DNA from: a virus
IMG/VR virus record: IMGVR_UViG_3300035130_000101
Coordinates: 6,304-70,303 of that record
Length of the DNA stretch: 64,000 nt
Direction: 5' to 3' (one strand)
The notes under the pieces were generated by a model. It saw only the letters and a list, made by a program, of their open reading frames with translations. It did no database searches and was not told the origin of the DNA. Below are positions 3,357-57,558 of the stretch, piece by piece (the first letter of the stretch is position 1; the number at the start of each line of letters is the position of its first letter). The position numbers were made by a program, and so were the translations under genes.

Positions 3357-3357
3357 T

Positions 3358-4182: not shown

Positions 4183-4331
4183 TTATTACATCGATATAGA
4201 TAGTGATAGTTTATGTAGTTGAATTTAGTATTTTTGATTTCTTCTTTAGAGGGAACGTCTGAAACCCAATCGTCAATCTCTTGCCAATTGTGCCTACACT
4301 TTTTCACGAATAGAGATCTTATCTTGTTCAT
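4179..4331 (-). CDS. small hypothetical protein
   Basis: 50 aa from the Met at 4331 (ATGA overlap with the upstream stop). The ORF track lists a longer 63-aa form. Confidence 0.3.
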   Translation of the reverse strand: MNKIRSLFVKKCRHNWQEIDDWVSDVPSKEEIKNTKFNYINYHYLYRCNK

Positions 4332-4516
4332 AGCGCCCCAATGTATCTGAGTAGCACAATTACGACCCAAATAAAAAATGCTGTAAGTCCCAGGCCGATT
4401 ATCAGGGATATTACTCCACCGACAATTGAGGCTATTTTTATCCGCCTGAAATCTCTATCGAAATCATCTGACATTTTTTGAAACCGTTTATCAAAGTCAC
4501 TCATAATCCAAACCAA
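4328..4516 (-). CDS. small membrane protein
   Basis: 62 aa. Hydrophobic span IASIVGGVISLIIGLGLTAFFIWVVIVLL. Confidence 0.4.
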   Translation of the reverse strand: MVWIMSDFDKRFQKMSDDFDRDFRRIKIASIVGGVISLIIGLGLTAFFIWVVIVLLRYIGAL

Positions 4517-5228
4517 ACCTTTCCTTCAATTCCTGTCTGTCTGTCATCTTCAGTCCCGGTATCCCGCTCCGGTCGTGATAGTTCCATTGCCCCCGTTGGA
4601 TGACGTTGACGTGCCGCAGCGGAGCCTGCCGGGTGCCGAGTACCAACCAATCGGGGTGGTTGTTTACCCTGCCAGCCATCTCTATCTGTTGGGCCGTTTC
4701 ACCGGGGACAAGCACCTCTCTCAGTAAGTCTCGCCGCCACATTCCACCCCAGAGTGACATATGGTACTGGCTATTCGGGTCGCTCTTAATCAGGTCGAGA
4801 TAGCCCAGAGTATCATAGGTATTGTAGCCCCAATAGAACTGATTGTAGCCTTCTGGTGGCGTGCCTGAGTAAAGCCGCTCATCAGCCAGGTCGAACTTGA
4901 GAACGTTGGTATACTGGTGCATATAGTCGTAGATCATCTGGACGGCTTTGGTGTCAACGGGACGGGAAAGAAAATAATCATCGAGCATAAGGATAAAGAC
5001 TTCATCGGCTACGGTGTCCAGTACCTTTATGAGTGCATCGCTCCATTTGTTGGCCGGGTAATTTTTGAATTTGCCGATAGAGTAGAAATTGGAATCACAC
5101 TCAATTCTGGTATAGCCGCAAGTCAGGCGAGTATGCTCAAGTCCGTTAAAATATTTGGTCCACTGATACCAAAAGGGGGGAATAGTCCACTGCTGATTGT
5201 CGCTGGTCATTACAATTACTTGTATCAT
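4497..5228 (-). CDS. hypothetical protein, possible glycosyltransferase
   Basis: 243 aa. FILMLDDYFL is a DxD-like motif (weak). Confidence 0.35.
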   Translation of the reverse strand: MIQVIVMTSDNQQWTIPPFWYQWTKYFNGLEHTRLTCGYTRIECDSNFYSIGKFKNYPANKWSDALIKVLDTVADEVFILMLDDYFLSRPVDTKAVQMIYDYMHQYTNVLKFDLADERLYSGTPPEGYNQFYWGYNTYDTLGYLDLIKSDPNSQYHMSLWGGMWRRDLLREVLVPGETAQQIEMAGRVNNHPDWLVLGTRQAPLRHVNVIQRGQWNYHDRSGIPGLKMTDRQELKERFGLDYE

Positions 5229-5291
5229 CGGTTCCTCTACAAAAAATATCCGGGTCTCTGTATGCCGGATGGGATTAAATGTTGTTATCGG

Positions 5292-6191
5292 TTACGTTCC
5301 TTTGTTTCCTCTATACCATTCTATCGTTTGCCTTAACCCATCTATCAGCGACGTTTCCGGCTGCCACCCTAACAGTGACTTAGCTCGGCTATTATCATAT
5401 AGCCGTCTTTTCTCACCAGTAGGCTTTGTCTTATCCCAGGCGACGGTGCCATCGAAACCGGTCAACTCAACCAATAAATCAACCAACTCAGCAATCGACA
5501 CCTCTTGATTAGACGAGATATTGACCGGCTGACCCACGTCGGTATCAATGAATTTGGACAGGGCCTTTGCCACGTCACCAGCATACAGAAAATCTCTAGT
5601 AGCCTTGCCGTCGCCCCAAATGGTAACAACCTCTTTGGCCTCGATAAACTTACGTACCAAGGCAGCTATGACGTGGCCGCTTTCTCCAAAGTTGTCTCTT
5701 GGACCATACATATTAACCGGAATAGGATACTCAAAAGCCATCCCGTACTGCTCGCGGCAGGCTTCCAGTTGCGCCAGGGCCACCCGCTTACTAATGCCAT
5801 ATGAACCATTAGACTTTTCAGGATAGCCACTCCACAGGTTGCCCTCTTTCATCGGCAATAGCGGAAAGTCAGGATAAGCGCAAACCGAGGAGACAAACAC
5901 GAACTTCCCGACGCCAATCTCAGCACACTTCTGGATAAGCTGAGTATTCATCATCACATTGTCATAATAGATGCTGGCCGGGTTTGCCATATTGTAGGAA
6001 ATGCCGCCGACGTTGGCCGCTAGGTGGTAGACGATATCGGGCTTGACAAAATGATCGAAAAGGGCATCAATATGATCATGTTGCCGCAGGTCATAGGCGC
6101 GGGATAGAACGGGGTAAACGTCGTGGTCACTTAAGAGGGGGTAGAGATGGCTGCCAAGAAAGCCAGCGGAGCCGGTCAGGAGTATCTTCAT
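5292..6191 (-). CDS. NAD(P)-dependent sugar epimerase/reductase, GDP-L-fucose synthase (Fcl/ColC)-like
   Basis: MKILLTGSAGFLGS (GxxGxxG), YGISKR (YxxxK), PVNMYGPRDNF...SGHVIAALV. Met at 6191 overlaps the upstream stop. Confidence 0.7.
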   Translation of the reverse strand: MKILLTGSAGFLGSHLYPLLSDHDVYPVLSRAYDLRQHDHIDALFDHFVKPDIVYHLAANVGGISYNMANPASIYYDNVMMNTQLIQKCAEIGVGKFVFVSSVCAYPDFPLLPMKEGNLWSGYPEKSNGSYGISKRVALAQLEACREQYGMAFEYPIPVNMYGPRDNFGESGHVIAALVRKFIEAKEVVTIWGDGKATRDFLYAGDVAKALSKFIDTDVGQPVNISSNQEVSIAELVDLLVELTGFDGTVAWDKTKPTGEKRRLYDNSRAKSLLGWQPETSLIDGLRQTIEWYRGNKGT

Positions 6192-6370
6192 TGCCGTTTC
6201 CTCATTGCCAGCCATACCTCATCGGCCGTCGGCTTGCGCACTTTTTCCGCCGCCAAGTAGGTTTGCAGAATCCAGACGATATGCGCCGTCTTGCTACGCT
6301 GTGCTTTTTGGGCGCTGGCGGTTAGTTGGGTATTGAGTTTATCGGGTAAGCGTAGGGTGAAGCGGGTCAT
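6188..6370 (-). CDS. ribbon-helix-helix (CopG/Arc-like) DNA-binding protein
   Basis: 60 aa. MTRFTLRLPDKLNTQLTASAQKAQRSKTAHIVWILQTYL fits a beta-strand plus two helices. Confidence 0.5.
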   Translation of the reverse strand: MTRFTLRLPDKLNTQLTASAQKAQRSKTAHIVWILQTYLAAEKVRKPTADEVWLAMRKRQ

Positions 6371-44812: not shown

Positions 44813-44840
44813 AAATTTTCAACTGCGATTGAAAAAATTA
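44813..44840. repeat. palindromic motif copy filling a whole intergenic gap
   Basis: aaattttcaactgcgattgaaaaaatta. Spans from the stop at 44838-44840 to the ATG at 44812. Confidence 0.65.
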
Positions 44841-47363
44841 GTATGATGAAAAGCTGTCGCGCCAGAGCATATAGGCGGTAATGGTAGGCGCACCAGCTAC
44901 ATTAACAAATGAGGTTACGTCGTTGTTATCGGGTAGAAGCGCCCACGTTCCAAAATCTGAATTTGCCAATATAGCATCTGGACGTGAACCAAAAAAGTCA
45001 GAAATAATACTTTGTTCTTTAGGTGACAAATCAATTACTAATGTTTCACCGTCAAGTAATGAGTAATTGAATAAAAGTTCTTTACCGGTACGCAAAGAAC
45101 GCAAATTATATATTGTTGCTGTAGTACCACCGGAGCGATTGAAAAAGACTTTAGGATATACTATCGTTCCGTCATTGTCTATTGATGTTAGTCCTCCAAA
45201 GTAAGCTGTTCCAGTGGTAGTATATCCAATAAACAAATCAAAAAGTTTGTTATTTGTTGGATCGCTTCGCCCGATTTGTATAGCATATACAATTGGCGAT
45301 CCCGGCAAATCTATATCTAAACTTGACCAGGTGTACCCATTCCAAAAGGCTATTCTATCCGTTGTCGTGATGCCACCAGCGGTAGTAAAAAAACCACCGG
45401 CATATAATGTTCCATCTGGACCAATGGCTAATGAATAAACAGTATTATTCATTCCAGTACTGAGGGCTGACCAAAAACTTCCATTCCACGAAGCGACGCG
45501 AATTGCAGCCCCGCCACCAGCAGTAGAAAAATCCCCCCCTGCATATAATGTTCCGTCTGGGCCAATGGCTAATGTCTGGACACTACCATCCATTCCAGTG
45601 CCGAGGGCTGACCAGGAAGAGCCATCCCACGAAGCAACGCGATTTGCAGCCCCGCCACCGGCAGTAGTGAAATTACCTCCTGCATATAATGTTCCGTCTG
45701 GGTCAATGGCTAAGTCATTGACAGTACTATTCATTCCAGTGCTGAGGGCTGACCAGGAAGAGCCATCCCACGAAGCGATATAATTTGCAGCCCCGCCACC
45801 GGCAGTAGTGAAATTACCTCCTGCATATAATGTTCCGTCTGGGCCAATGGCTAATGTCTGGACAACGTTATCCATTCCAGTGCCGAGGGCTGACCAGGAA
45901 GAGCCATCCCACGAAGCAACGCGATTTGCAGCCCCGCCACCGGCAGTAGTGAAATCCCCCCCCGCATATAATGTTCCGTCCGGGCCAATGGCTAATGCAA
46001 AGACAGCACTACTCATACCAGTGCCGAGGGCTGACCAACTTTCATCTTGTTTATGCCATCTAACTATATTGTCAGCATTGGCGATATTATCAAAATTTGT
46101 AAACTGTCCGCCTACATAGACATAGGTATCATCTTCGACGATTGCTCTAATATTTGTGTATGTACCGGCTGCATCTGGTGGTCCCAGGGGATTCCATTGT
46201 CCAGTGGAACGTAATCGGCCAGCAACATACCTAAACGTGGCGCTATCATTCGTATCCAGCACCGCCGCGCTCTCCCCCACTTCCAGCCAAAACGGGTTAG
46301 GCGCGGTCAACTGAATAGCGGCCCGCTGAGAAAACTTATTGAGTTTTAACCAGTTGCCATCGTCGATACTCCGGTCATCACAGTAGACAACCGGCATATC
46401 TCCTTCAAGCCCGCCGCCATATCTAACCGCTATCTCTTTCTGGACTTTAGCGCCGTTAAAGCGGATTCGGGTCAGTTGCAGATCGTCGGCAAAGAAGGCT
46501 TCTTCCAACTCTTGCGTCTTCTCGTGAAGCTCTGATTCTGTATCAGCAATGAACTGTCCGATTATGGTAAACTCTCTCGGCTCTATCTTTTCGTTGTTTA
46601 GCTCACCACCGGGCAGGATTGCATAGCTATCAACTCCGAGGCGACGGGGTGCACTACCGGCTCCGACTACCCGTTCGACCTGGAATTTGTACTCCTCCCA
46701 AAAGTCAACGGACTTGCCACCGGCTTTACTCAGGGCGCTGCGCTGACTTATCGAGGCGTGTTCGCTGCCAAGCCATTCGCATCCGTCCTGAGTGCCGTCG
46801 ATGTAGGTTGTCCAATATGCAAGCGGCTCGACCTGCACTCCGTCCAGATAAAACGTACCAGGTTGCGCTGCGGTAATTTCAAGCGTCGTCCGTCCGTTGG
46901 CTTGCGCTGCCGCAAAGGGCGCGCCGTACAATGACCAGCTATCATCTATCTTCTCGACGAACTTGAGCCTCTTGGTTGCGCTGCCGATAGTTACCAGGAG
47001 ATTGGTATTGCCCCGCACTCTGGCCGTGACAAAATGCTCGACATTGGTCAAGGCGGAGGTGGTCAGGCTTACGCCGTCGCCAATGGCAGGCGCGGCCACC
47101 TGGTAGGAATAGAGGCCGTATTTTTGATAAGTCGTTACTCTGGTCGTAGTAGCGCCGGAAACGTCCGAGAAATTAGCGGTCGTTTCCGCCGATGGATTCA
47201 GAACGTAATTGCTTGAGGCCACCGGCGTTATGATTCGCCATTTGTTATCCACGGTTGGTACCCCTGTCTTGAAGATTACAGGCAGGTAAATCTTCTCTTG
47301 CGCCTGGGAGTAGCCCGGCCATAAGATGATTACCAGACATATTAAAGCTAGTAGTTTTTTCAT
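44838..47363 (-). CDS. large tail-associated protein with signal-peptide-like N-terminus and six 47-aa beta-propeller-like repeats
   Basis: MKKLLALICLVIILWPGYSQAQE. Repeats SWxGSSWSALGTGMxxxVxxLAIGPDGTLYAGGxFTTAGGGAANxxA. Confidence 0.5.
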   Translation of the reverse strand: MKKLLALICLVIILWPGYSQAQEKIYLPVIFKTGVPTVDNKWRIITPVASSNYVLNPSAETTANFSDVSGATTTRVTTYQKYGLYSYQVAAPAIGDGVSLTTSALTNVEHFVTARVRGNTNLLVTIGSATKRLKFVEKIDDSWSLYGAPFAAAQANGRTTLEITAAQPGTFYLDGVQVEPLAYWTTYIDGTQDGCEWLGSEHASISQRSALSKAGGKSVDFWEEYKFQVERVVGAGSAPRRLGVDSYAILPGGELNNEKIEPREFTIIGQFIADTESELHEKTQELEEAFFADDLQLTRIRFNGAKVQKEIAVRYGGGLEGDMPVVYCDDRSIDDGNWLKLNKFSQRAAIQLTAPNPFWLEVGESAAVLDTNDSATFRYVAGRLRSTGQWNPLGPPDAAGTYTNIRAIVEDDTYVYVGGQFTNFDNIANADNIVRWHKQDESWSALGTGMSSAVFALAIGPDGTLYAGGDFTTAGGGAANRVASWDGSSWSALGTGMDNVVQTLAIGPDGTLYAGGNFTTAGGGAANYIASWDGSSWSALSTGMNSTVNDLAIDPDGTLYAGGNFTTAGGGAANRVASWDGSSWSALGTGMDGSVQTLAIGPDGTLYAGGDFSTAGGGAAIRVASWNGSFWSALSTGMNNTVYSLAIGPDGTLYAGGFFTTAGGITTTDRIAFWNGYTWSSLDIDLPGSPIVYAIQIGRSDPTNNKLFDLFIGYTTTGTAYFGGLTSIDNDGTIVYPKVFFNRSGGTTATIYNLRSLRTGKELLFNYSLLDGETLVIDLSPKEQSIISDFFGSRPDAILANSDFGTWALLPDNNDVTSFVNVAGAPTITAYMLWRDSFSSY
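45340..46050. repeat. 141-bp tandem repeats (about 5-6 units) inside 44838-47363
   Basis: gcagccccgccaccggcagtagtgaaat recurs at about 45645, 45786 and 45930, a 141-nt period. Boundaries approximate. Confidence 0.75.
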
Positions 47364-47396: not shown

Positions 47397-50300
47397 TCAT
47401 CCAATAAGCGCCTTTGCTACCTGATACTGCTGGATAACCGACTGCGGGGAGGCCAACGTGTTAACTGTCATATTGAACGTGTTATTTCTGTCGCCACCAC
47501 CTTTTAGCATCCCGGCTAATCGGTCCATAACCAGGCTGTCAATCGTCATCCCTCTCGGCGTGACAAGCAACTCCTCACCCGGCTCAAGGTACATCGGGCC
47601 AAACGTGTCACCCCGACCTTGCCCCGGTATTTTGTAGCCCAGGCCCAAGCCGTTTTGTAAACCGATACCCCGCATAAAGCCGATGCCTTTAGAAAAGCCG
47701 ATGCCGGTTTGTGCGCCGGATGCACTGCCAGCATCCTGCGCTGCCCGTGCCGCCTCTTTAGCAGCCTCCGCCATTTTCCTGAAAGCCTCTTCTGCGTCCA
47801 TAACGATCTCGATTAGATCATCGATAGCATCGGCAGCATCTTCCATATCGTCGACGATCTTTTCAGCCGCCCGAGATGCCGCTTCGCCTACTGCCGTGAA
47901 AGCCGAACCGAGAGCGTGAACGGCGGCAGTCAATTGATTGACCAGGGTCATAATAGCATTGATTGCGTCAGTGGCGGTTGTTTGGAGCGTCGGCAACGTT
48001 AGCACGTAAATATCGATGAGTGCAGTATCAAGCGGTATTATCCCCGTATCTTTTAACAATAGTAGTTTCTCGGATATCAGATCATATGTCAGCGTGAAGG
48101 CATCTTGCAACAGGGGCAAAGTGATCTCTACAAAATCGAGAATGGATTGCACGAAAGCCGTCCATTGCTCCTGTACCGGTAGCAGTCCAGCAGAGATAGA
48201 TTCAAACGCTGCTAACGGGTCAGCAGTGTCAAACTCTGGTCCAGTTGACTCTTCCTCTCCGCCACCGAATAAGCTACTAAAAACACCGGTGACGGCTTCG
48301 ACTGCTTTGCTTGCCAGCGAGCCTATGCCATCAATAAGACCCTGGATTAAATCAGCGCCAAAATCATAAAAAACGGTACTTGGTGAACTAATGCCAAGAG
48401 CTTCCTTAAAAGAGCTTATCAAAGCATTGGCACTTTCTGTTATAGCATTTTCCAAGTCCTGTTGAGCCTGTTTTATACCATTCTTGATACCATCTATGAT
48501 ATTTGTGCCGACTACTTTAGCTATTGTTTTCATATTTTCGCCAATGCCATTTAGGACACTGGTAAGTTCGCTTATCGTCGCCGGCTCGACTTGTATGCCT
48601 ATTTCATCGAGTAGGCCAGACACGATACCGGCGACGATTTGCGCCGCCAGTCCAACTATAGCTTGTGACACCGCCGATACTGCCGCTACCAGTCCGATTA
48701 TGATCTTGCCCAAGACCTTAGCCATCTCAGGGCCATTATCTCCAAAGTTACCAATTTGCTCGCCTAAAAATTGACCGATGGCAAAACCGGCATCTTTTAA
48801 GCCTGCTTGGGTTTCAGGTGATCCGGCCCATCTGATTATCTCCGCTACAACAACAATCAGTGCCTGAGTAGCCATATCAACGGCAGTATTAGTCCATTCC
48901 CAAAATTTAGCAGCCCAGTCTGAGTGAGCCTCGATCAACTCCGGTGCATAGTCTCTAATCTTTTGCCCGACAAACCCGGTCAACTCAGCCATCTTACCGG
49001 GACCATCAACGAGAGCGGTTACTGTCCAGTCCCAAAACTGATTGCCCCAAGTTGTTAATTGCGCCTCTATCTGAGGCCAAGCGTTATTGATAGTATCGAC
49101 GATCATTTCAATGACCGCCTGAAAATCAGTCGCCCCGCTGCGAAATGCTTCTATCCAACTGCTGACAAAAGCGATGGCGTTTTCAAGCGCAGGCACAACC
49201 TGATTATCCAGAGCATCGGTCAACGGGCCGGCAAAATCTGAGGCAAACGAGATACCCAGACTGATAAGCTGATTAACAAACGGCAATAGTCGAGTGCCAA
49301 TCGTATCGGCCAGGGCGCGCAAGGTGTTTTTGAATAGCTGTATCTGACTTTTGGTGGTAGCGTATCGCTGCGCCGCCTCGTTTGCCAGGGCCGTGTTTTC
49401 CTCAAAAGCCCCGTTAGCCGTCTGTAAGGTGCGCTCTAACAGATCACCCGCCCCGGCCAGTGACAGAAATGACCGGATTAACCGTTGATCTTCCAGGCCC
49501 AACTCGGCCAGCGTATTAACAGCATCGTCACCTTGCGCCCCCAGGCCCTCGACAAAAGCCAGAAATGCTCCGCTTGCATCTTTCTCCCAAGCGGCCTTGA
49601 AATCCTCAACGGTCATATTAGACGTGGCTGCAAATGTCGCCAGCAGGTTACTATCTATCGGTTGCCCGTGCTGCTGCCTGAGTAAATCTGTTTCCGCTTG
49701 CAATTCCTGAATAGCCTGAGCTGTCTCAAAAGCCTTTTGCCGGGTCTTGTCGCCCAACTGCCGCCCGAACTCCTCAGCCGAGCCACCGGCGGCAATGAAA
49801 GCTTGCTCTTGCGCTAATAGCTCCGCTTGCAAGCCAGGAAATTGCGCCTCTAGCCTGGCGGATTCGGCATTGAGTTTTGTCAACTTGTCAACGTTCTTAT
49901 CAATCTCATCTGTATAATCAACAAAGCCGGTAGCAGCCCCGGCCACGGCGTTATTGATTGCCAACAGAACCTTTTGTGTTGCCGTACCACCCGCTTCCGC
50001 CTCTACGCCAACCGATGACATTGCCGTACCGATGGCCAGTACATCAGCCTGGGTAAGCCCGGCTATTTTACCAGCCCCGGCTAGCCTCTCGCCAAAAGCC
50101 AAAATATCACGTTCTGTAGTAGCGAAGTTATTACCCAGGGCAACGATAGTCGAACCAAGTTGCTCGATATTCATCCCCATATCATCGGCGGAAATGTTGA
50201 AAATGTTGGAGATACGGGCCAGGCCGGTCGCAGCCTCTTCGGTCGAGAGGTTAGTTGATACACCCAGCGCGGCGACAGTTTCAGTAAATTCCAGTAGGGC

Positions 50301-50741
50301 ATCTTTGCCGATACCCAATTGACCGCCCAGCTCACCGATAGCAGCTAATTCCTCGAAGGTCAAGGGGACTGTTTTTGTCAGATCAACAAAGCCAGCGCGC
50401 AACTCCTTGCCAGCTTCGTTCAATTCACCGATACCGGAAGTCAAGCCGTCTGTTGTTTTGATGACCCCGGCAAATGCATCTTCAAACGATATGGCCGTGG
50501 TAGTCGAGACAGTAGCCAGCGCGCCCACGCCAGCGGCCAGCGCGCCCACACCGGCGACGGCTACGCCTGCGGCAAGTTTGGCGGTACTGCCTAATGCGCT
50601 GCCGAGCTTGCCGAACATTCCGCCGGCTTTGTCGGCGGACTTACCTAAGCCAAGTTGGGCTTTGTCGGCTTTGGAGAGATCGCGGAGATATGAGTTAAGG
50701 TTGCGTGCTAAAAATTCTACTCCTACTGGTGTTAATGCCAC
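47397..50741 (-). CDS. tail tape measure protein
   Basis: 1114 aa, Ala/Gly/Leu-rich and helical, with hydrophobic central segments. GTG start. Confidence 0.8.
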   Translation of the reverse strand: MALTPVGVEFLARNLNSYLRDLSKADKAQLGLGKSADKAGGMFGKLGSALGSTAKLAAGVAVAGVGALAAGVGALATVSTTTAISFEDAFAGVIKTTDGLTSGIGELNEAGKELRAGFVDLTKTVPLTFEELAAIGELGGQLGIGKDALLEFTETVAALGVSTNLSTEEAATGLARISNIFNISADDMGMNIEQLGSTIVALGNNFATTERDILAFGERLAGAGKIAGLTQADVLAIGTAMSSVGVEAEAGGTATQKVLLAINNAVAGAATGFVDYTDEIDKNVDKLTKLNAESARLEAQFPGLQAELLAQEQAFIAAGGSAEEFGRQLGDKTRQKAFETAQAIQELQAETDLLRQQHGQPIDSNLLATFAATSNMTVEDFKAAWEKDASGAFLAFVEGLGAQGDDAVNTLAELGLEDQRLIRSFLSLAGAGDLLERTLQTANGAFEENTALANEAAQRYATTKSQIQLFKNTLRALADTIGTRLLPFVNQLISLGISFASDFAGPLTDALDNQVVPALENAIAFVSSWIEAFRSGATDFQAVIEMIVDTINNAWPQIEAQLTTWGNQFWDWTVTALVDGPGKMAELTGFVGQKIRDYAPELIEAHSDWAAKFWEWTNTAVDMATQALIVVVAEIIRWAGSPETQAGLKDAGFAIGQFLGEQIGNFGDNGPEMAKVLGKIIIGLVAAVSAVSQAIVGLAAQIVAGIVSGLLDEIGIQVEPATISELTSVLNGIGENMKTIAKVVGTNIIDGIKNGIKQAQQDLENAITESANALISSFKEALGISSPSTVFYDFGADLIQGLIDGIGSLASKAVEAVTGVFSSLFGGGEEESTGPEFDTADPLAAFESISAGLLPVQEQWTAFVQSILDFVEITLPLLQDAFTLTYDLISEKLLLLKDTGIIPLDTALIDIYVLTLPTLQTTATDAINAIMTLVNQLTAAVHALGSAFTAVGEAASRAAEKIVDDMEDAADAIDDLIEIVMDAEEAFRKMAEAAKEAARAAQDAGSASGAQTGIGFSKGIGFMRGIGLQNGLGLGYKIPGQGRGDTFGPMYLEPGEELLVTPRGMTIDSLVMDRLAGMLKGGGDRNNTFNMTVNTLASPQSVIQQYQVAKALIG

Positions 50742-50770
50742 TTGACAAAATCCTTAAACTAAGATACAAT
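50742..50770 (+). promoter_or_regulatory. sigma70-type promoter of island cassette 1
   Basis: TTGACA-17 nt-TACAAT. The -35 abuts the GTG start of the TMP on the other strand. Confidence 0.65.
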
Positions 50771-50777
50771 AATTCTT

Positions 50778-50852
50778 GCCAGACAGTTGACTGAATAGAA
50801 TGGTTGATATAAAATTACAAATACTCTCCTCTGCTTTGGTCAATTGTCTGGC
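50778..50852 (+). ncRNA. 5'-terminal leader stem-loop of cassette 1
   Basis: GCCAGACAGTTGAC (50778-50791) pairs with GTCAATTGTCTGGC (50839-50852) with one G-U. It starts about 7 nt after the -10. Confidence 0.5.
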
Positions 50853-50903
50853 GACAAAGGCCATTCCAAAAGCGGAGGAGTTTTTTATTGCAAGGAGATA
50901 GCT

Positions 50904-51521
50904 ATGAGCAATATCGTTAAAGCAAAGGTCAAGGTAAGGGGCACTCGCCCATTTTGGCAACATCGTTTTGGCCCGGAAGCATTGCCACTCGAAAAGAAGG
51001 AAAAGACGGGCGTCGCCGGCAACAACCCCGAAGAATGGAGACAGACGGCAATGGTCAATAAAGACGGACAGCTTTTCTTTGAAGGTACTTACATTTTTGG
51101 TTCGCTGCGTGAGGCTGCAAAGTACACGAAGCGAGGCCGGGCATCCCTGCAAAAGCCGGTTGCCGCTACGCTTCAAATCTTGGAAGATAGAATCCTGCTT
51201 GATCGCTTTTTCCCCGGCTTTCCCAACGGTCACAAATTCGACATCGCTACCGTTGAAGAGCTGCCACGCGACCAGGAAGAATTGGTCTATTTGGACGTGA
51301 GAGGCGTCGTGAATCCATCGACGCGAGGCCGGAACGTGCGCTATCGGGTCGCTGCTTCTCCTGGTTGGCAAACCGAGTTTACCATTATGTTTGATAAGAC
51401 CATTGTCAGCCGGAATGAAATGGAAGCTATCTTGATTGACGCCGGGCGACTGGTTGGCATCGGCAATGGTCGGACTATCGGAATGGGCCGGTTTGAGGTT
51501 GAACAGTTCGAGTGCGAGTGA
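50904..51521 (+). CDS. island paralog A: uncharacterised roughly 205-aa protein with RAMP-like C-terminal glycine-rich loop
   Basis: AAGGAG SD. ...AGRLVGIGNGRTIGMGRFEVEQFE fits GhGxxxxxGhG. Clearly homologous to 53825-54403. Confidence 0.6.
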   Translation: MSNIVKAKVKVRGTRPFWQHRFGPEALPLEKKEKTGVAGNNPEEWRQTAMVNKDGQLFFEGTYIFGSLREAAKYTKRGRASLQKPVAATLQILEDRILLDRFFPGFPNGHKFDIATVEELPRDQEELVYLDVRGVVNPSTRGRNVRYRVAASPGWQTEFTIMFDKTIVSRNEMEAILIDAGRLVGIGNGRTIGMGRFEVEQFECE

Positions 51522-51783
51522 TATTACGGGGTCCGGTACAGTAGGGCGCAGCGGGGTAAGGTGTGGTAGAGTTTGGTACAGCGAGTTACGGTCCAGCTTG
51601 GCAAGCCATAGCAAGGAAAACAAATCTAATTTACGCGATATAGTATAACGCGGTCGAGTCGGGTTTTGTCCGGCAAGGATATGTCGAGTCAGGTTAGGCT
51701 GAGTCGGGTTAGGTCTCGTAAAGCGATGCAAGAAAAACAAACTAAACCACCACGAGGCGTAGTAGGGAACGGTAAGGTGGGGT
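51522..51783 (+). other. C-poor GT-rich degenerate-repeat tract 1 (non-coding)
   Basis: Stops in all plus-strand frames. GGTAAGG x2, GGTTAGG x2, GTCGAGTC(G/A)GGTT x3, GCAAGG(A) repeats. Confidence 0.6.
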
Positions 51784-52137
51784 ATGGCTCGCTTGTGTTC
51801 GGTCGAGTTAAGCAAAGCAAGGGATTTAATGCCAAAATCAAGACAGCCACAAGCAATATGGCAAGCCACCCGCCAAAGAGTTTGGCTTAGGGACAAGGGC
51901 CGTTGCCAGGGACCATACTGCAAAGATAAGCCTGAATGGTCCCTATCTCTGAAAGAGTGCCATATTGACCATATTCGCTCTGGCAAGTTGGCTACAAACA
52001 AATCGAGTAACCTCCGTGTTTTATGCCGTCGCTGCCATACCCTTAGAGCCGACAACAGGCATCGGGGTATGATAGCTTCTGCCCTACGTGCTAACATAAT
52101 TCCTGCCAATTGGCGTGAATTAGTCTGGGATGACTGA
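51784..52137 (+). CDS. small HNH endonuclease (island copy 1)
   Basis: RDKGRCQGPYC...CHIDHIRSG...NLRVLCRRCH. Start uncertain (ATG at 51784 or about 51829). Confidence 0.6.
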   Translation: MARLCSVELSKARDLMPKSRQPQAIWQATRQRVWLRDKGRCQGPYCKDKPEWSLSLKECHIDHIRSGKLATNKSSNLRVLCRRCHTLRADNRHRGMIASALRANIIPANWRELVWDD

Positions 52138-52221
52138 CCCGGCTTGGCGCAGCAGAGCAAGGATCAGCACCGACCGGCGTGGTGGGGTGTGGTAGAGTGC
52201 AGTTTAGTATCGCAAGGATAA
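52138..52221 (+). other. GT-rich tract 1b downstream of HNH-1
   Basis: Shares GGCGCAGC and the 13-mer GGTGTGGTAGAGT (52186-52198) with tract 1 (51560-51572). Confidence 0.55.
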
Positions 52222-52244
52222 GGGCCAGCAATGGCCCTTTTTTC
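52222..52244 (+). terminator. terminator of island cassette 1
   Basis: GGGCC-agcaat-GGCCC followed by TTTTTT. Confidence 0.65.
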
Positions 52245-52358
52245 TTTTGTGCGCCGGTCGGTGTCAGCGGCATTTTTTACCTTTTCTCTTCGCAAAAACA
52301 ACATTTTGCGAAGTAAAATATCCAACCTTAAAAGTGTGCAAATTGGTATTGAGGACTA

Positions 52359-52387
52359 TTGACAAGTGAACACTTATCTGCTATAAT
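52359..52387 (+). promoter_or_regulatory. sigma70-type promoter (consensus)
   Basis: GGACTATTGACA-17 nt-TATAAT. Confidence 0.75.
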
Positions 52388-52420
52388 AAGTACATCAAAC
52401 AGTAAGAAAGGATTAAGAAA

Positions 52421-52639
52421 ATGACTAAGCAGTTCAGATTTGTAGGTTTTTCTCATAAAACTTGGGAACCCGGTTGTCGAAATCTTGGTATGGTGTGGGC
52501 TTCTTCCATCGATGAAGCTCGGCAAGCCTTCAAAGAGAACGGCTTAGCTCCTCCGGTTATAAAACGAAAATTAGGCGACGCTTCTTATCGTCTAGTGGAT
52601 GATAACGGTAATGTCACTAAAGAAATGATTTTTCGCTAA
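52421..52639 (+). CDS. hypothetical small protein
   Basis: 72 aa. Consensus promoter at 52359-52387. Confidence 0.5.
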   Translation: MTKQFRFVGFSHKTWEPGCRNLGMVWASSIDEARQAFKENGLAPPVIKRKLGDASYRLVDDNGNVTKEMIFR

Positions 52640-52690
52640 CCACCCACCCGCCCCGCCGGTGGCCTCGTAACCGGCAGAAAGGTACTTAAG

Positions 52691-52894
52691 ATGAAAGATA
52701 TGGCATATTTTGTTAATCTGGTAGATGAGGCCAAGAAAACCAGAGATAATATTGGCGAGATGTTCAATGAAGCCTACTATGCCAAGCAAGATACTACTCG
52801 TTTACAACGGTTATTTGATAAAGCTACCGACCGCATCTTGCGCCGGATGGGTTATGTCTGGTTATTAGACCAGGCGAAAAATTTCAAAGAGTAA
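52691..52894 (+). CDS. hypothetical small protein
   Basis: 67-aa ORF. Confidence 0.45.
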   Translation: MKDMAYFVNLVDEAKKTRDNIGEMFNEAYYAKQDTTRLQRLFDKATDRILRRMGYVWLLDQAKNFKE

Positions 52895-52939
52895 CCACTT
52901 AATGGCCCGCCCGGGGCCTATCCGGGCAAAGGTGCTAAA

Positions 52940-53101
52940 ATGTTTTTGTCGCAGTCAGATTTTTCTCACTTGTTCAATGTTCTCAGGTCGGTTTATCCCA
53001 GTGACCTATACTCTGACAATGATTTGCTCGACTTCCTGGCTACACTAGACCACGTTCCAGATAATGATGAATTGTTAGACTTGTTCGAGGAGGCAATGTA
53101 A
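52940..53101 (+). CDS. hypothetical acidic small protein (unlisted 53-aa ORF)
   Basis: Manual translation MFLSQSDFSHLFNVLRSVYPSDLYSDNDLLDFLATLDHVPDNDELLDLFEEAM. TAATG overlap with the next gene. Confidence 0.4.
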   Translation: MFLSQSDFSHLFNVLRSVYPSDLYSDNDLLDFLATLDHVPDNDELLDLFEEAM

Positions 53102-53301
53102 TGTCATCTTCTCTCAAATCCCAACACCGCATCCAGCTTGACCCCGGCAACTTCGCCCGGCTGCAAGACATCGCCAAGCGGCTTGGCTACGTTCACCGGG
53201 CCGGGCCAGGAGCCGGTAAGGTCGGGTCGGTAAGCACGTTGATGGACGCAATCGCAAACCAAGAATCCGTAGTATCGTTAGCCAAAGAAAGGAATGAATG
53301 A
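53101..53301 (+). CDS. hypothetical small protein, possibly RHH-like
   Basis: HRIQLDPGNFARLQDIAKRLG. Confidence 0.4.
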   Translation: MSSSLKSQHRIQLDPGNFARLQDIAKRLGYVHRAGPGAGKVGSVSTLMDAIANQESVVSLAKERNE

Positions 53302-53558
53302 TGACCGATTATCAGATGATAAAGGAATACCTTGCAAGGCAAGTCAAGGAATGCGAACAGGCCATTATTAAATTTACAAATCGAGCAAACTTTGACGCAG
53401 GATTGGTGGCCGAGTTTCAAAGCTATGAACCCGATGTAGCTCTTATTTATGCTCAATGGCATCGCTTTCATCGAGATAAAGTCATCTATTTTCAAAAAAC
53501 GCTGGCGGTATTTCAAGATCGTTATTATGACTTTACCAAGTTTGACCCTAACCCTTAA
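53298..53558 (+). CDS. hypothetical small protein
   Basis: 86 aa, followed by terminator 53566-53588. Confidence 0.45.
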   Translation: MMTDYQMIKEYLARQVKECEQAIIKFTNRANFDAGLVAEFQSYEPDVALIYAQWHRFHRDKVIYFQKTLAVFQDRYYDFTKFDPNP

Positions 53559-53565
53559 CCACCTC

Positions 53566-53588
53566 GCCCCCGCAAGGGGGCTTTTTTT
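53566..53588 (+). terminator. terminator of the island small-gene operon
   Basis: GCCCCC-gcaa-GGGGGC followed by TTTTTTT. Confidence 0.75.
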
Positions 53589-53625
53589 ATTTCCCCTTTT
53601 TCGGCTTGACGTAATTTGCATCACT

Positions 53626-53654
53626 TTGACACCAATAATCATTTGTGATATAAT
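53626..53654 (+). promoter_or_regulatory. sigma70-type promoter (consensus) of island cassette 2
   Basis: TTGACA-17 nt-TATAAT. Confidence 0.75.
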
Positions 53655-53659
53655 ATCCC

Positions 53660-53774
53660 TTGTCAGACTAAACGGTTTGCGAGGGCGCTTTTTTGTTGCC
53701 CACAATTAACCGAATAATTGCGGATAGACCGCCCGGCTTGAATAGGGTAAGCGCCCAAACCGTTAGTCTGACAA
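53660..53774 (+). ncRNA. 5'-terminal leader stem-loop of cassette 2
   Basis: TTGTCAGACTAAACGGTTTG..GGGCGC (53660-53688) pairs with GCGCCC-AAACCGTTAGTCTGACAA (53751-53774), with bulges. Confidence 0.5.
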
Positions 53775-53824
53775 CTAAGGTTTTTCGAGCCGGGCGTTCT
53801 GTTTGCAAGAAAGAAAGGGTCACT

Positions 53825-54403
53825 GTGTATACCGTTGATGTATCTGTAGAAGGTGTTGCGCCATTGCTGCAACACAAGTTCCCGTTGCCGGACTTCTCCG
53901 ATCTTGGCAAGGGAGGCAAACAGTCCACGGGAGAAAAGGATTATACTGAGGAATGGAAGGATTATCTGTACGTAGATTCCGATGGCGAAATCTTTCAACC
54001 TGCCGTTCACTTTGACGGCTGTATGGTCAAGGCCGCCGTCAATTTCAAAATCCAGGGCAAGCGCGGCAAAACCTACAAAGATTTGTTCAAAGGTAACGTG
54101 TTCTGTTCGCCGGATGAAATTCTGCACGGTATTAAAGCTCCTGAAACTTTGGACAATGACGCCGACAAGCCGCTTTATTTGGATATTCGCCCCGTTGTTA
54201 TCAGCCGGGCCAGGGTAGTCAGGATTCGCCCCGCTTTTGCACCGGGCTGGAAACTGAGCTTTGAGATTGAAATCCTTGACGATCAAATTCCTGCCAACGT
54301 TGTTAATGAGGTTCTGTCCCTGGCCGGTAAGACCGTCGGTGTCGGTGATTTTCGCCCCCGTTTTGGCCGGTTTATGGTTACGAGGTTTGAGGTTCGGAAG
54401 TAG
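53825..54403 (+). CDS. island paralog B: uncharacterised roughly 192-aa protein homologous to 50904-51521
   Basis: GTG start chosen by alignment to paralog A (VSVEGVAPLLQHKF vs VKVRGTRPFWQHRF). C-terminal AGKTVGVGDFRPRFGRFMVTRFE. Confidence 0.55.
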   Translation: MYTVDVSVEGVAPLLQHKFPLPDFSDLGKGGKQSTGEKDYTEEWKDYLYVDSDGEIFQPAVHFDGCMVKAAVNFKIQGKRGKTYKDLFKGNVFCSPDEILHGIKAPETLDNDADKPLYLDIRPVVISRARVVRIRPAFAPGWKLSFEIEILDDQIPANVVNEVLSLAGKTVGVGDFRPRFGRFMVTRFEVRK

Positions 54404-54657
54404 ACTTTGTGGTAAGGGTGGGCAACGGTCAGGTAAGGTCCGGTAGTGGCAGGCTAGGAGAGGTTTAGTCCGGTATCGGTGTGACCTGGTGAGGGAAGGT
54501 CTGGTAAGGTAAAGTGAGGTAAGGGAAGTCTTGTGGTAAGGGAAAGGTGAAGTCGGATCGGGTGAGCTAAGATTGGGTGGGGTGTGGATTGGTGAGAATT
54601 GGCGCGGGCAGGTGAGGCAGAATAAGGTAAGGTTATCCAAATATTCGGTTGTCTGTT
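54404..54657 (+). other. C-poor GT-rich degenerate-repeat tract 2 (non-coding)
   Basis: Ten GGT(A/G)AG cores (GGTAAGG x6, GGTGAGG x2, GGTGAG x2). About 10 percent C by manual count. Stops in all frames. Confidence 0.65.
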
Positions 54658-54924
54658 ATGTCAAAGTATTTTACAGTAAACGAACTCCCTGGTTTGCATT
54701 TTCTATGGTATTCTCGATTGCCGCTTGATGTCTGGTTGCCGCTCAAGCAATACGTCTATCAAAGAGACGGCGGTATCTGCCAGTATTGCGGTAATCAGTT
54801 TGCCTACGAAAAAACTCACTGTCATCACGTTTTAGAATTATGTGAAGGCGGTACAAACCACCCCACGAACCTCAAGACGCTTTGCATTGATTGCCATAAA
54901 ACCAGACACCCGTTTATGAAGTAA
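54658..54924 (+). CDS. small HNH endonuclease (island copy 2)
   Basis: RDGGICQYCG...CHHVLELCEGGTNHPTNLKTLCIDCH. Confidence 0.65.
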   Translation: MSKYFTVNELPGLHFLWYSRLPLDVWLPLKQYVYQRDGGICQYCGNQFAYEKTHCHHVLELCEGGTNHPTNLKTLCIDCHKTRHPFMK

Positions 54925-55016
54925 TCTTGTGGCAGGGCCGTGGTACGGTGATGTGATGTGAGTTTTGGTGCGGCAAGGTGCGTCCGGGTGATGTAAGGAT
55001 TGGCTTGGTAAGGTAA
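54925..55016 (+). other. GT-rich tract 2b downstream of HNH-2
   Basis: cttgtggcaggg..., ggtgatgtgatgtgag, ttggtaaggtaaggg. Runs into terminator 55017-55042. Confidence 0.55.
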
Positions 55017-55042
55017 GGGTAGATTAAGTTCTACCCTTTTTT
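55017..55042 (+). terminator. terminator of island cassette 2
   Basis: GGGTAGA-ttaagt-TCTACCC followed by TTTTTT. Confidence 0.7.
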
Positions 55043-55335
55043 GTTTTTGGCATATTTGCATCGCTTACGTGCGCCTCGATTAGTAAACTTGCTTGATGAT
55101 AGGCAATCATTTCAGCTACAAATTCTCTTGGATATTCACCACGTCTTAACTTTAATAATTCATCTAAACCGGCTCCGCAATATATCGCTGCCCTAAATTG
55201 AGAGAATAATCCTAAGCTACCATTGTGACTTGTAATCCCTACTGGCTTTCCAGAGCGAAGCGGATATTCTTCAATTGCAATACCGTTTCTTTTAATCCCG
55301 AAAGCGAGATTTGGCCGCTGCCAAGTCCTCCTCGC
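55024..55335 (-). CDS. start-less 103-codon ORF in the +1 frame relative to the chaperone gene; candidate frameshift extension
   Basis: Manual translation ARRTWQRPNLAFGIKRNGIAIEEYPLRSGKPVGITSHNGSLGLFSQFRAAIYCGAGLDELLKLRRGEYPREFVAEMIAYHQASLLIEAHVSDANMPKTKKGRT. No ATG/GTG/TTG until codon 83. AT-rich codon usage. Confidence 0.35.
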   Translation of the reverse strand, partial: ARRTWQRPNLAFGIKRNGIAIEEYPLRSGKPVGITSHNGSLGLFSQFRAAIYCGAGLDELLKLRRGEYPREFVAEMIAYHQASLLIEAHVSDANMPKTKKGRT

Positions 55336-55810
55336 TTACGCCTGAAAGCATTGACAGCAAATTCCAATCGTCTGCCCCCAAAGCAAAATATCGTATAAAG
55401 ACAAAGCGACGTTCAAACTCATCGTCAAGATCGTAGTCATCCAGGTTCAGATGGCCCCGCTTCGCCAGAAAGCGCAACTTCTTGAGCCAGGCATCATCTG
55501 CCGGCAGGCCGTCAACCAATTCAACGCCGAGCATCGCCATTACATCAAAGCCCGCCTGTACCCGTTTGGCGAAGGCTTCCTGTTTGGCCGCGAGGTAGTC
55601 CGGGTCGTTTGGGTTTTCAACCGGATAATCTTTTCCCTCTACTTTTTGCTTTGGTACAGGCGGGTCTTTGATTGCCGTCGCCGCTTCCTGAATGGTAGCA
55701 GTAGGCACGGGGATAAGGCGAACCGTTATACCGGTCGATAGCTTGATCGGTTCGTCCAGATTGAGTTGTCCGTTCTTCTTTGCCGCGTCAACGGCGGGGC
55801 TTCTGGCCAT
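55292..55810 (-). CDS. putative tail assembly chaperone
   Basis: 172 aa with an acidic C-terminal half, between the putative tail tube and the TMP (by synteny). Confidence 0.45.
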   Translation of the reverse strand: MARSPAVDAAKKNGQLNLDEPIKLSTGITVRLIPVPTATIQEAATAIKDPPVPKQKVEGKDYPVENPNDPDYLAAKQEAFAKRVQAGFDVMAMLGVELVDGLPADDAWLKKLRFLAKRGHLNLDDYDLDDEFERRFVFIRYFALGADDWNLLSMLSGVSEEDLAAAKSRFRD

Positions 55811-56046: not shown

Positions 56047-57558
56047 TTAATCCTCGCCAACCAGGACAATGCCATCACTGCCATTATCCGCCAGGCCAAC
56101 GCCAACCACAAAGTTGACATCTTCCTTGCAAGCGGCCAGGGCATTTACCCGGTCATTTGCCGGTAATGTGGCGCTACCCTCCGGCAATAGTTGCCAGGAA
56201 TAACCGCCGTCATAGGTGCGGAAGATGCGCCCGGCTGCCGCATCCGTAGCGTGGGCCAGATAGCCCACCGATTTAGAAGCAAAAGCGATGTCATAGATGA
56301 CGCCCGCCCCGGAGCCGCTAAAGCCTTTGGCAGTAAAGGTGACACCGTTATTGACGGTATAGTACAATGTACCGCCGCTGGTCCCAAGCCACCACTCACT
56401 ATCGTTATTAGCCTTAATCCAAACGGCGTTGTAATCCACACCGACGCCGGTCGGAGGCGTGATCTCCGTGAAGGTGACACCGTTCTCGCTCTTGAGGATA
56501 GCCGAAGCGTTACCGACAGCAATGATCTTGGATTCAGAAATGGCGTGAATAGCGTTAAGATCATCCGTCAAGACAGTTCCAGCTTCCAATACCGTCACCC
56601 CGGCGGTTGGGTCGGTCAGCTTGTAGACGTAGCCGCCATTAGCGGCGATGAAGGCGACGCTGCCCAAGCTCCAGATATCCTGCGGTTGCTTGCTCGCCAC
56701 AAAGCCGGTGGTGACTTCTGTCCAGGTCGGATCAGGCGTAGTGTCGAAGTCGTCAATGTCGGCATAGTGAAGCGAGTTTGACGTTTCGTCAATGACGACT
56801 ACGTACCCGGCTACACAGGCGATACCGGTCGGACTATCGGCCGCGCCCATCGTGTCGATATCAACGGCATACCAGTTTACCCCACCGTCGATGGAGAATA
56901 CCACGTCTGCCGGTGTGGATGGTGAGCCACCTGCCGCAATCGAGACGGCAAAGATTTTTTCGCAGCCGTCCGACGGATCTTCACAATCGCCACAAGAGGC
57001 CGAGTCGCAGATAACTACATCTACGATCTCATTGGTTACAATCGACCCGGCCCGACTTGCAAAGCCGAGCTTTAGCACCTCGTACCATTCCCGCATCGAG
57101 ATGTCGGCCGTTTCGTTGACCTGGGCCCGCTCGTCGCTGGATAATGCACCAAGCTCATCGGTGGCGTAGTTGGTTACCTTCGTCTTTTCCAAGATGAGCT
57201 TTTTCTCAAACTCGTTAAACAGAGACACGTCCTGACATTGCCCCAGGTTTAGATGAATGTCACTGGAACAACGCCGGTCAGCAACCCTCTTGAGTACCGA
57301 CGCTTCATTGAGCGGATAGATACCCATTATCTGAGTCGTCGGCCTTTCGTCCGCTTCCTGAATTTCGCCAATCTCCTCGAACTGGTCCGCCTTATTGGGG
57401 TGTGGCGCTTCGATCTTGGTCACATCACCGTAAGACTTTTCCAGCGCACCGGCCCGCATAAAGTTATGATAAGCCGGCGTCCTATCTGCCCGCGCCTCGT
57501 TTTCGATGATGAAAACTCGGCTTAATCCGGTTTTGGCCGGACTCCAATTGTCAGTCAT
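56047..57558 (-). CDS. putative major tail protein with C-terminal BNR/Ycf48-like propeller repeats
   Basis: 503 aa. Position upstream of the chaperone and TMP. The C-terminal half has SxDGGxxW-like repeats (SIDGGVNWY, NNGVTFT, YDGGYSWQ). Confidence 0.4.
   Translation of the reverse strand: MTDNWSPAKTGLSRVFIIENEARADRTPAYHNFMRAGALEKSYGDVTKIEAPHPNKADQFEEIGEIQEADERPTTQIMGIYPLNEASVLKRVADRRCSSDIHLNLGQCQDVSLFNEFEKKLILEKTKVTNYATDELGALSSDERAQVNETADISMREWYEVLKLGFASRAGSIVTNEIVDVVICDSASCGDCEDPSDGCEKIFAVSIAAGGSPSTPADVVFSIDGGVNWYAVDIDTMGAADSPTGIACVAGYVVVIDETSNSLHYADIDDFDTTPDPTWTEVTTGFVASKQPQDIWSLGSVAFIAANGGYVYKLTDPTAGVTVLEAGTVLTDDLNAIHAISESKIIAVGNASAILKSENGVTFTEITPPTGVGVDYNAVWIKANNDSEWWLGTSGGTLYYTVNNGVTFTAKGFSGSGAGVIYDIAFASKSVGYLAHATDAAAGRIFRTYDGGYSWQLLPEGSATLPANDRVNALAACKEDVNFVVGVGLADNGSDGIVLVGED

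Follow-up and report, generated by a model that had tools for sequence, protein, structure and literature searches.

The systems called VIPR, for Viral Interference Programmable Repeat, were described as a class in two bioRxiv preprints of 2026 (10.64898/2026.04.26.720920 and 10.64898/2026.04.26.720927; April-June 2026). A VIPR comprises a RAMP protein of about 20 kDa, Vipr, and guide RNAs, the vrRNAs, in which 9-16 YNNGG repeats are followed by a conserved 3' tail. According to these preprints, one protomer binds each repeat and sequesters GGY in a glycine-rich loop (G-loop) while the NN bases are displayed, and the filament pairs NN on double-stranded DNA and skips one target base. The natural targets are mostly competing phages and satellites, and no self-targeting was reported. 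Seven types were distinguished, and 667 systems in 664 loci were counted, with YNNNG repeat variants listed. Some types have nuclease or helicase accessory genes, with an HNH domain shown for one; types III and V are over-represented in host defence islands, and nuclease-type VIPRs are predicted to destroy their targets. The described examples come from Escherichia phage SUSP1 and a prophage of Pseudomonas fulva (type II), and a structure is deposited as PDB 36pp. From the text and the legend of Fig. S21 we infer that type III is the HNH type; by elimination within the text, it also seems to be of the single-vrRNA kind. Here we analysed a stretch of 64,000 nucleotides of viral DNA (IMG/VR record IMGVR_UViG_3300035130_000101, positions 6,304 to 70,303), referred to as the window. 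At 50742-55042 the window contains a block of plus-strand genes, the island, between two minus-strand genes, the tape measure gene and a gene for a 172-aa protein. Very probably (about 0.9), this island holds two independent VIPR systems of the HNH-accessory kind, termed cassette 1 and cassette 2.

The island consists of three transcription units, each placed between a near-perfect sigma70-type promoter and an intrinsic terminator. Two of these units are the cassettes, and each cassette is one unit made of a promoter, a structured leader, vipr, vrRNAs, an HNH gene, a further vrRNA and a terminator. The parts of cassette 1 are:

50742-50770, plus strand: promoter, TTGACA-17-TACAAT, 11 of 12 consensus bases
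50776-50903, plus strand: vipr-A leader, a 20-bp stem with an interleaved second stem (minimum free energy -38.2 kcal/mol, z -3.1 against shuffles)
50904-51521, plus strand: vipr-A, 205 aa, divergent G-loop GIGNGRTIGMGRF (PDB 36pp match, phrog_4652, AlphaFold2/Foldseek)
51530-51651, plus strand: predicted vrRNA A1, 17 in-register RGY-NN pentamers (51530-51614) and an A-rich tail, from the pentamer parse
51652-51755, plus strand: predicted vrRNA A2, about 15 pentamers and a tail with a small hairpin
51756-51828, plus strand: predicted vrRNA A3, about 13 pentamers, up to the HNH-A start codon
51829-52137, plus strand: HNH-A, 102 aa from ATG 51829, the vap-like accessory gene of cassette 1 (Pfam HNH, 28.6 bits)
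52141-52219, plus strand: predicted vrRNA A4, 15 pentamers, then the terminator; the element with its terminator reaches 52249
52220-52239, plus strand: stem of the intrinsic terminator

Those of cassette 2 are:

53626-53654, plus strand: promoter, TTGACA-17-TATAAT with TG, 12 of 12 consensus bases
53660-53824, plus strand: vipr-B leader, two interleaved long stems (z -4.0 against shuffles)
53825-54403, plus strand: vipr-B, 192 aa, G-loop GVGDFRPRFGRF (PDB 36pp profile match, phrog_4652, AlphaFold2/Foldseek)
54407-54528, plus strand: predicted vrRNA B1, GGY-NN pentamers from the boundary motif CTTTGTGG on, their register shifted twice by 1 nt
54529-54648, plus strand: predicted vrRNA B2, boundary CTTGTGG, then 18 in-register pentamers (54546-54635)
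54658-54924, plus strand: HNH-B, 88 aa from ATG 54658 (Pfam HNH, 37.8 bits); the mechanical open reading frame (ORF) begins at TTG 54649
54927-55014, plus strand: predicted vrRNA B3, boundary CTTGTGG and about 15 pentamers, then the terminator; the element with its terminator reaches 55038
55015-55038, plus strand: intrinsic terminator

An original prediction, made from the raw sequence, had laid out the same six elements in both cassettes (promoter, long-stem leader, protein, tract, HNH gene and terminator), and we found all of them at or near the places it gave. It had suggested an RNA-plus-nuclease module acting in defence, exclusion or homing, which agrees with the description of VIPRs in the 2026 preprints. 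Its claim of a novel system did not hold, since the class had already been published (bioRxiv, April-June 2026). What goes beyond the text of the preprints is the tandem of two divergent cassettes, the abundance of nuclease-type VIPRs on viral contigs and in phage tail modules, the pairing of RGY repeats with an N-G G-loop, and a leader supported by covariation.

Like the VIPRs of SUSP1 and P. fulva, the cassettes are minimal, phage-borne two-gene loci with a RAMP protein of about 20 kDa homologous to SUSP1 Vipr. Their guide tracts, in which 12-18 pentamers combine a fixed (G)GY with a variable NN, likewise flank vipr on the same strand, and here, too, no self-target was found and the candidate target lies in another phage. 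The cassettes differ from the SUSP1 type in the accessory gene, which encodes an HNH nuclease here and the DNA-binding vap1 there, and the window Viprs are only ~26-30% identical to the SUSP-type Vipr. The predicted units are bounded by YTTGTGG (clade B) or by GCAAGG plus a tail (clade A), as opposed to the pseudoknot tail in SUSP1, and both the tandem of two divergent systems and the conserved structured leader 5' of vipr set the locus apart. With the nuclease-type VIPRs, presumably type III, the cassettes share the combination of Vipr, vrRNA and a predicted HNH accessory protein; unlike what the text of the preprint suggests for these, each window cassette has 3-4 predicted vrRNAs and lies in a phage tail module, and 46 related loci are on viral contigs.

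The identification rests foremost on the two proteins of about 200 aa. As had been proposed, they are paralogs, with 31% identity between them (E 2e-20). A profile of Vipr-B and its relatives matched the SUSP1 Vipr protein (PDB 36pp) over the full length (residues 1-190, E 3.5e-56), and Vipr-A alone matched the same entry with E 1.8e-6. Both also matched phrog_4652, a family of function not known (E 9e-11 for Vipr-A and 2e-21 for Vipr-B), which contains Felixounavirus and Suspvirus proteins as well, and tblastn found distant homologs in phages of these two groups. The AlphaFold2 models (pLDDT 84.3 and pTM 0.81 for Vipr-B, 85.3 and 0.80 for Vipr-A) had Cas7-family subunits, namely Cmr4, Csm3, type VII Cas7, Csf2 and gRAMP, as their top PDB matches in Foldseek (E ~1e-7, TM 0.5-0.6); no Vipr structure was among the matches from this fold library, which closed on 2026-04-08. 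Pfam RAMPs and Cas6 reached E 0.0055 and 0.018 on Vipr-A, both below cut-off, and PADLOC reported weak Cas6 and Csm4 matches on the Vipr G-loop. By sequence similarity both paralogs are thus Vipr proteins, for which the models predict a Cas7-like RAMP fold, and the RAMP-like protein with a glycine-rich loop that had been suggested from the sequence is supported. Neither the profile nor the structure searches assigned the pair to a known phage family that does not bind RNA. In a protein collection at 90% identity we counted 527 homologs of Vipr-B and 1567 of Vipr-A, and at 50% identity 2580 clusters matched with an E value of 0.001 or less.

In SUSP1 Vipr, H17 and D177 contact G1, R138 contacts G2, R179 contacts Y3, and W178 stacks on G2 (bioRxiv 10.64898/2026.04.26.720920, 10.64898/2026.04.26.720927). 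H17, R138 and R179 are aligned to identical residues in both window paralogs. Vipr-B has an equivalent at every one of the GGY-contacting positions (H17, R135, D175, F176 and R177), and Vipr-A at part of them: H20, R148 and the arginine of the G-loop are kept, whereas N stands in the place of D and G in that of W. The D177-W178 pair of SUSP1 therefore reads D-F in Vipr-B and N-G in Vipr-A, the G-loop of which is one residue longer. K33 of SUSP1 lies in a five-residue insertion that is missing from the window Viprs.

Related loci were gathered from viral contigs, metagenomes and genomes, and unique loci were counted; a scan of genome contigs with a single protein as the query gave no match. The B-clade loci have at least 58% identity to Vipr-B, and the two HNH clades, A and B, reach down to 43% Vipr identity. 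An HNH-B-type gene adjoins vipr in 13 of 13 unique B-clade loci, all of which have same-strand tracts beside vipr. In the A clade, an HNH-A-type gene adjoins vipr in 33/33 unique loci from viral contigs and metagenomes and in 16/16 loci from genomes or metagenome-assembled genomes; the tract scan covered the former 33, and most of them have same-strand tracts beside vipr. The co-occurrence of protein, tract and HNH gene, which had been named as a check, was recovered in this way, with an adjoining HNH gene in all 62 related loci (one exception, in the HNH subtype, at a contig end) and tracts in nearly all loci checked. Among 63 more distant Vipr loci, tracts are present in all and an adjacent HNH homolog in none. 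The order of the parts varies from locus to locus (vipr-tract-HNH, vipr-HNH-tract, or both), and the tracts sit on the vipr coding strand, within the promoter-terminator unit. A-clade genes occur in assemblies of many phyla, including Pyrinomonadaceae, Armatimonadota, Bacillota isolates (Paenibacillus cellulosilyticus), several cyanobacteria and Chlamydiales, and because of this spread they do not fix the host of the window phage. A and B cassettes were found together in no other surveyed locus. In one distant locus without HNH (L030), two Vipr genes at 3203-3820 and 4890-5540 lie about 1 kb apart with tracts around both, so tandem VIPRs exist in other clades too.

The tracts beside the vipr genes are degenerate repeats of five bases, RGY-NN in cassette 1 and GGY-NN in cassette 2. 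The pattern was first read in two related loci, where every GGT or GGC triplet precedes a pair of variable bases. Within the window tracts the spacings between GGT triplets are almost all multiples of 5, and base identity amounts to 0.40-0.51 at lags 5, 10 and 15, compared with ~0.25 at other lags. For the parse, the pentamers were anchored on positions 2 and 3 only. Positions 4 and 5 are not fixed, as no base exceeds 54% in the window tracts and none exceeds 37% across each clade. The first position is G in 82% of the cassette 2 pentamers; in cassette 1 it is G in 52% and A in 39%. Across the clades, the fraction of G at this position (A clade 0.70, B clade 0.89, other Vipr loci 0.93) tracks the difference in the G-loop, which follows the pattern GIGxGRxIGxGRF in the A clade and carries a D-aromatic pair in the B clade and the other Vipr loci. 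The N-G G-loop of Vipr-A would fit the less strict first base in the repeats of cassette 1, although this connection between residue and base is itself our inference.

The original prediction had recognized degenerate-repeat tracts with stops in all frames, and indeed no reading frame is open across either of them; it had overlooked the five-base period and the putative guide function of the NN positions. Repeat tracts were also rightly seen in what it called GT-rich, C-poor sequence, a composition that cassette 1 does not have (C 17%, G 34%, A 28%). Tandem Repeats Finder missed the tracts, listing a single 19-nt item in the island, and Rfam gave nothing there. The 64-kb window was also scanned for places where five or more of ten consecutive pentamers carry GGY; apart from the island tracts, this yielded just two stretches, both short and marginal. 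A 50-nt stretch on the minus strand at 56058-56107, on the coding strand of a 503-aa gene, passes this test; the C-terminus encoded there is rich in Gly and Val (GVGLADNGSDGIVLVGED), and GGT/GTT codons most likely produced the pattern by chance.

On the basis of boundary motifs, four vrRNA units are predicted in cassette 1 and three in cassette 2. A unit of the A clade has ~13-18 pentamers and ends with GGCAAGG or GCAAGG, after which a tail or spacer of 30-45 nt follows; in the A-clade locus L118, an identical 45-nt spacer is repeated after each unit. The units of the B clade are delimited by the YTTGTGG motif. Readings of the tracts as TRAP- or CsrA-like protein sponges, as G-quadruplex DNA or as Chi-like hot spots were dropped after the match to SUSP1 Vipr in the PDB. 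The closest single-cassette relative (L005/L006 at 4916-5030, L007 at 3916-4030, minus strand) has an extra GGY-pentamer tract on the opposite strand about 1 kb 5' of vipr, beside a 1475-aa gene, and this tract may be a vrRNA transcribed convergently.

Both accessory proteins exceed the Pfam HNH cut-off of 21.4 bits, and they are 29% identical to each other. The mechanical HNH-A ORF (51784-52137) shares its first 15 codons with predicted vrRNA A3, and an AAGGGA ribosome-binding site lies 5' of ATG 51829. The true start codons are probably ATG 51829 for HNH-A and ATG 54658 for HNH-B. In L005 the start of the HNH gene overlaps the vipr stop codon, which suggests coupled expression.

The long-stem leaders that had been proposed for both transcripts fold better than shuffled sequences, with the z values listed above. 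Both window cassettes, together with nine or more relatives drawn from the two clades, have two interleaved helices in the ~130 nt between promoter and start codon, with the arms in the order h1-5', h2-5', h1-3', h2-3'. Covariation was assessed in an alignment of eight leaders (L008 4866-5003, L012, L014, L015, L016, L097, L098 and L101). Standard pairs occupy 90.5% of the cells, compared with 44-51% in controls in which the partner was slid by 1-3 columns, and 28 of 44 pairs changed on both sides, compared with 8-11 in the slid controls. None of 500 shuffles reached the observed values. The changes on both sides fall in 9 of 11 pairs of helix 1 and in 15 of 22 pairs of the helix 2 core. In L008, the one leader that was indexed, the AAGGA ribosome-binding site falls within the basal 3' arm of helix 2 and pairs with the conserved U-rich stretch of the leaders. 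The leader might act as a translational switch or as an RNase III processing site; the word "leader" is absent from the text of the discovery preprint.

We also searched for targets of the predicted guides. No guide scored above shuffled guides against the window itself and 146 loci. The scans of large collections used exact seeds only, and their sensitivity is therefore low. Guide B2 (54546-54635) gave a match under the NN-x rule: 30 of its 36 NN bases (83%) agree with L147 9047-9100 and L148 8733-8786, two contigs of one phage from two samples. Beyond the seed, 12 of 18 bases match (binomial P 2e-4 to 1.4e-3), and about 0.004 false positives of this kind are expected in total, given about one chance seed hit per scan and five seed scans of viral contigs. 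In L147 the site stretches over a terminator hairpin and over the ribosome-binding site and start codon of the gene for a 778-aa major head protein (phrog_10), which lies downstream of the terminase and portal genes. Judged from the sequence, it is a plausible natural target of B2, and the single candidate. No other window guide matches this phage. The exact seeds of A_vr2 and A_vr4 had no match in the collections. A_vr3 had one non-coding match, with 2 of 8 extension bases agreeing, and this was dismissed as chance. A_vr1 had one match, in L091 at 7723, with the first 10 NN exact and 26 of 34 in total, in which the skipped bases coincide with the codon wobble positions of a 660-aa tail-fibre-like ORF. 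It was not recovered in metagenomes, and we treat it as unproven.

How the cassettes would work can be outlined by homology with the SUSP1 system; what is said of RNA maturation, of the filament and its recognition of DNA, of cleavage by the HNH protein and of orthogonality is drawn from the preprints or from reasoning. The RNA of the tract would be cut into units of ~80-120 nt, each pentamer of which would be bound by one Vipr protomer; the glycine-rich loop and the thumb would hold the (G/R)GY bases, so that the two variable bases of each repeat would be displayed. The filament would then read double-stranded DNA in an NN-x-NN-x code, with every third target base skipped. A bound target, most likely a rival phage, would be silenced and probably also cut by the co-encoded HNH nuclease. 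The cassettes differ in the G-loop of Vipr, the fixed triplet (RGY versus GGY), the boundary and tail motifs of the units and the HNH partners. The two probably act in parallel, with no cross-talk between them.

The locus has an insertion-like position, which bears on the role of the HNH proteins. In two distant relatives, L129 and L130, the homolog of the 172-aa gene directly adjoins the tape measure gene, with neither vipr nor HNH between them, and we therefore regard the island as an insertion. Elsewhere, related cassettes stand on the strand opposite to their neighbours among glycosyltransferase genes (L003), in a tail module (L089/L090) or on the far side of the tape measure gene (L022). 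The genes on either side of the window island are:

47397-50741, minus strand: tape measure gene, outside the system (best match to PHROG tape measure families E 8e-79; the identical gene in L164 is matched by Pfam PhageMin_Tail)
55292-55810, minus strand: 172-aa gene 5' of the tape measure gene, a tail chaperone by position only

The original prediction had described the island as splitting the tail chaperone from the tape measure gene. The insertion is supported by L129 and L130; the identity of the chaperone is not, as Pfam and PHROG scans gave no family match for the 172-aa gene. As a separate observation, the glycosyltransferase-rich locus L003, a phage-like contig of 89.7 kb, carries a TnpB/IS605 OrfB gene at 3853-5055 (Pfam OrfB_IS605, Cas12f1-like_TNB) about 1 kb 5' of its VIPR cassette, which makes two different RNA-guided modules neighbours.

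Free-standing HNH homing endonucleases are common in phages, and the window proteins resemble them as small ββα-Me HNH proteins with CxxC zinc-knuckle pairs in a mobile insertion within a structural module. The VIPR cassettes could then be real while the HNH protein serves as a homing or mobility endonuclease that spreads the cassette, leaving Vipr and vrRNA to silence transcription only. The insertion at a junction that is empty in L129 and L130, the differing contexts of related cassettes (L003, L089/L090 and L022) and the fact that the sole experimentally tested VIPR represses without a nuclease all speak for such a role. Nevertheless, we consider it unlikely: an HNH gene of the matching subfamily is kept beside vipr throughout the 62 loci, apart from the contig-end exception, which is unlike loose hitchhiking and unlike free-standing homing endonucleases; the gene is embedded among guide RNAs and, in L005, overlaps vipr; and neither the empty site nor any gene flanking it in the relatives is matched by a guide. 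That the HNH protein is instead the effector cutting Vipr-bound DNA is, in our estimate, evenly balanced between true and false. The strict clade-matched linkage and the overlapping genes favour this effector role, and the mobility role stays alive because the cassette behaves as an insertion. Two other accounts, which dispense with VIPR altogether, were rejected. In one, the tracts are simple repeats acting at the DNA level, G-quadruplex-forming or recombination-stimulating, beside a nuclease, and the 200-aa proteins are binding factors that cannot be programmed. G-quadruplexes of two tetrads could arise from (GGTNN)n, RecA prefers GT-rich DNA as its substrate, and most guides have no identifiable target; yet the proteins are homologous to a Vipr that was solved with repeat RNA, the tracts are without exception on the coding strand of vipr, within a promoter-terminator unit, and their pattern of fixed and variable positions is exactly the one published for vrRNAs, which makes this account very improbable. 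Still less credible is the remnant of a CRISPR-Cas system, degenerate or miniature, in which Cas7 stands alone beside a decayed array; the sub-threshold Pfam and weak PADLOC matches and the Cas7 subunits among the structural matches might point to it. Tandem Repeats Finder and Rfam revealed no repeat-spacer array in the island, Pfam and PADLOC no other cas gene, and the paralogs show sequence similarity to Vipr with no Cas7 family above threshold. The likeness to the Cas7 family of Class 1 CRISPR-Cas (Csm3, Cmr4, type VII Cas7 and Csf2) consists in the predicted RRM/RAMP fold with its glycine-rich loop and, for the window Viprs by homology, in a backbone with one subunit per fixed number of guide nucleotides and periodic base flipping. 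The period, however, is 5 nt and not 6 nt, the guide is constrained by GGY in each of its repeats and the target would be read with gaps, and the island has no array, adaptation genes, or large or small subunits.

Several points weigh against the assignment of the island to two VIPR systems. The repeats of cassette 1 depart from the canonical GGY, and B1 has shifts of register. Target destruction by the HNH protein is a prediction, as it is in the preprint for nuclease-type VIPRs. A candidate target is at hand for only one of about eight guides, and it rests on one phage in two samples. Moreover, the 10-NN seed of B3 (ACNGANGANGANTTNGCNAANGCNCGNGA) had 15 metagenome matches (L149-L163), all of them false owing to codon bias, with extension at chance level; lying in genes that are unrelated, they all encode a common acidic helical peptide, T-[DE]-[DE]-[DE]-[FL]-A-[KN]-A-R-[DE]. 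Match counts are inflated where an NN-x pattern spells frequent codons, and a match in the wobble frame is therefore weak evidence. Target evidence for VIPRs is overstated by match counts and wobble phase unless the extension and shuffled guides are checked.

Between the cassettes lies the third transcription unit of the island. The five small genes with a consensus promoter of their own that had been noticed there were confirmed, the promoter having all 12 consensus bases:

52359-53581, plus strand: whole unit, ORFs of 72, 67, 53, 66 and 86 aa
52359-52387, plus strand: promoter, 12 of 12 consensus bases
53566-53581, plus strand: terminator

The five ORFs had no family matches in the Pfam, PHROG and PADLOC scans and no homologs among 125 other loci compared, mostly VIPR loci. 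For these reasons we left them out of the VIPR systems; they look like lineage-specific cargo. Within the 66-aa ORF (53101-53301), the plus strand at 53180-53229 shows a run of about eight xGG-NN-like pentamers (ccGGGccGGGccAGGagCCGgtAAGgtCGGgtCGG), which could be due to chance, a decayed vrRNA or a sign that this ORF is not real. Outside the island, on the minus strand 3' of the tape measure gene, 44838-47363 encodes an 841-aa protein with at least six tandem repeats of ~42 aa of the pattern WSALGTGMxxxVxxLAIGPDGTLYAGGxFTTAGG. Its homolog in L006 has a faint DUF5122 beta-propeller match, and the window protein probably serves as a tail fibre or in receptor binding.

With VIPR, RNA-guided recognition of DNA has gained a new class; it is known mainly from one tested type, and from that type for repression only. 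The island offers a clean natural example of a nuclease-associated VIPR in a virus, recoverable by a reader from the raw sequence alone, together with a concrete candidate target 5' of a major head gene (L147 9047-9100) and a leader that may control the translation of vipr. More speculatively, and with much more doubt than belief, one might suppose that HNH-type VIPRs are mainly weapons of phages and not host defence, that the two orthogonal systems here (Vipr-A reading RGY and Vipr-B reading GGY, each with an HNH protein of its own) go beyond silencing and cut the DNA of rivals, that they are mobile, and that the leader sets their expression by switching between two helices, one of which covers the ribosome-binding site. 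If this were true, an example of the cut would be the 5' end of the major head gene of a competitor. Two divergent sets of protein, guides and HNH nuclease side by side in one virus would provide a test case for the orthogonality of VIPR systems and for the conversion of DNA binding to cutting by the HNH protein.

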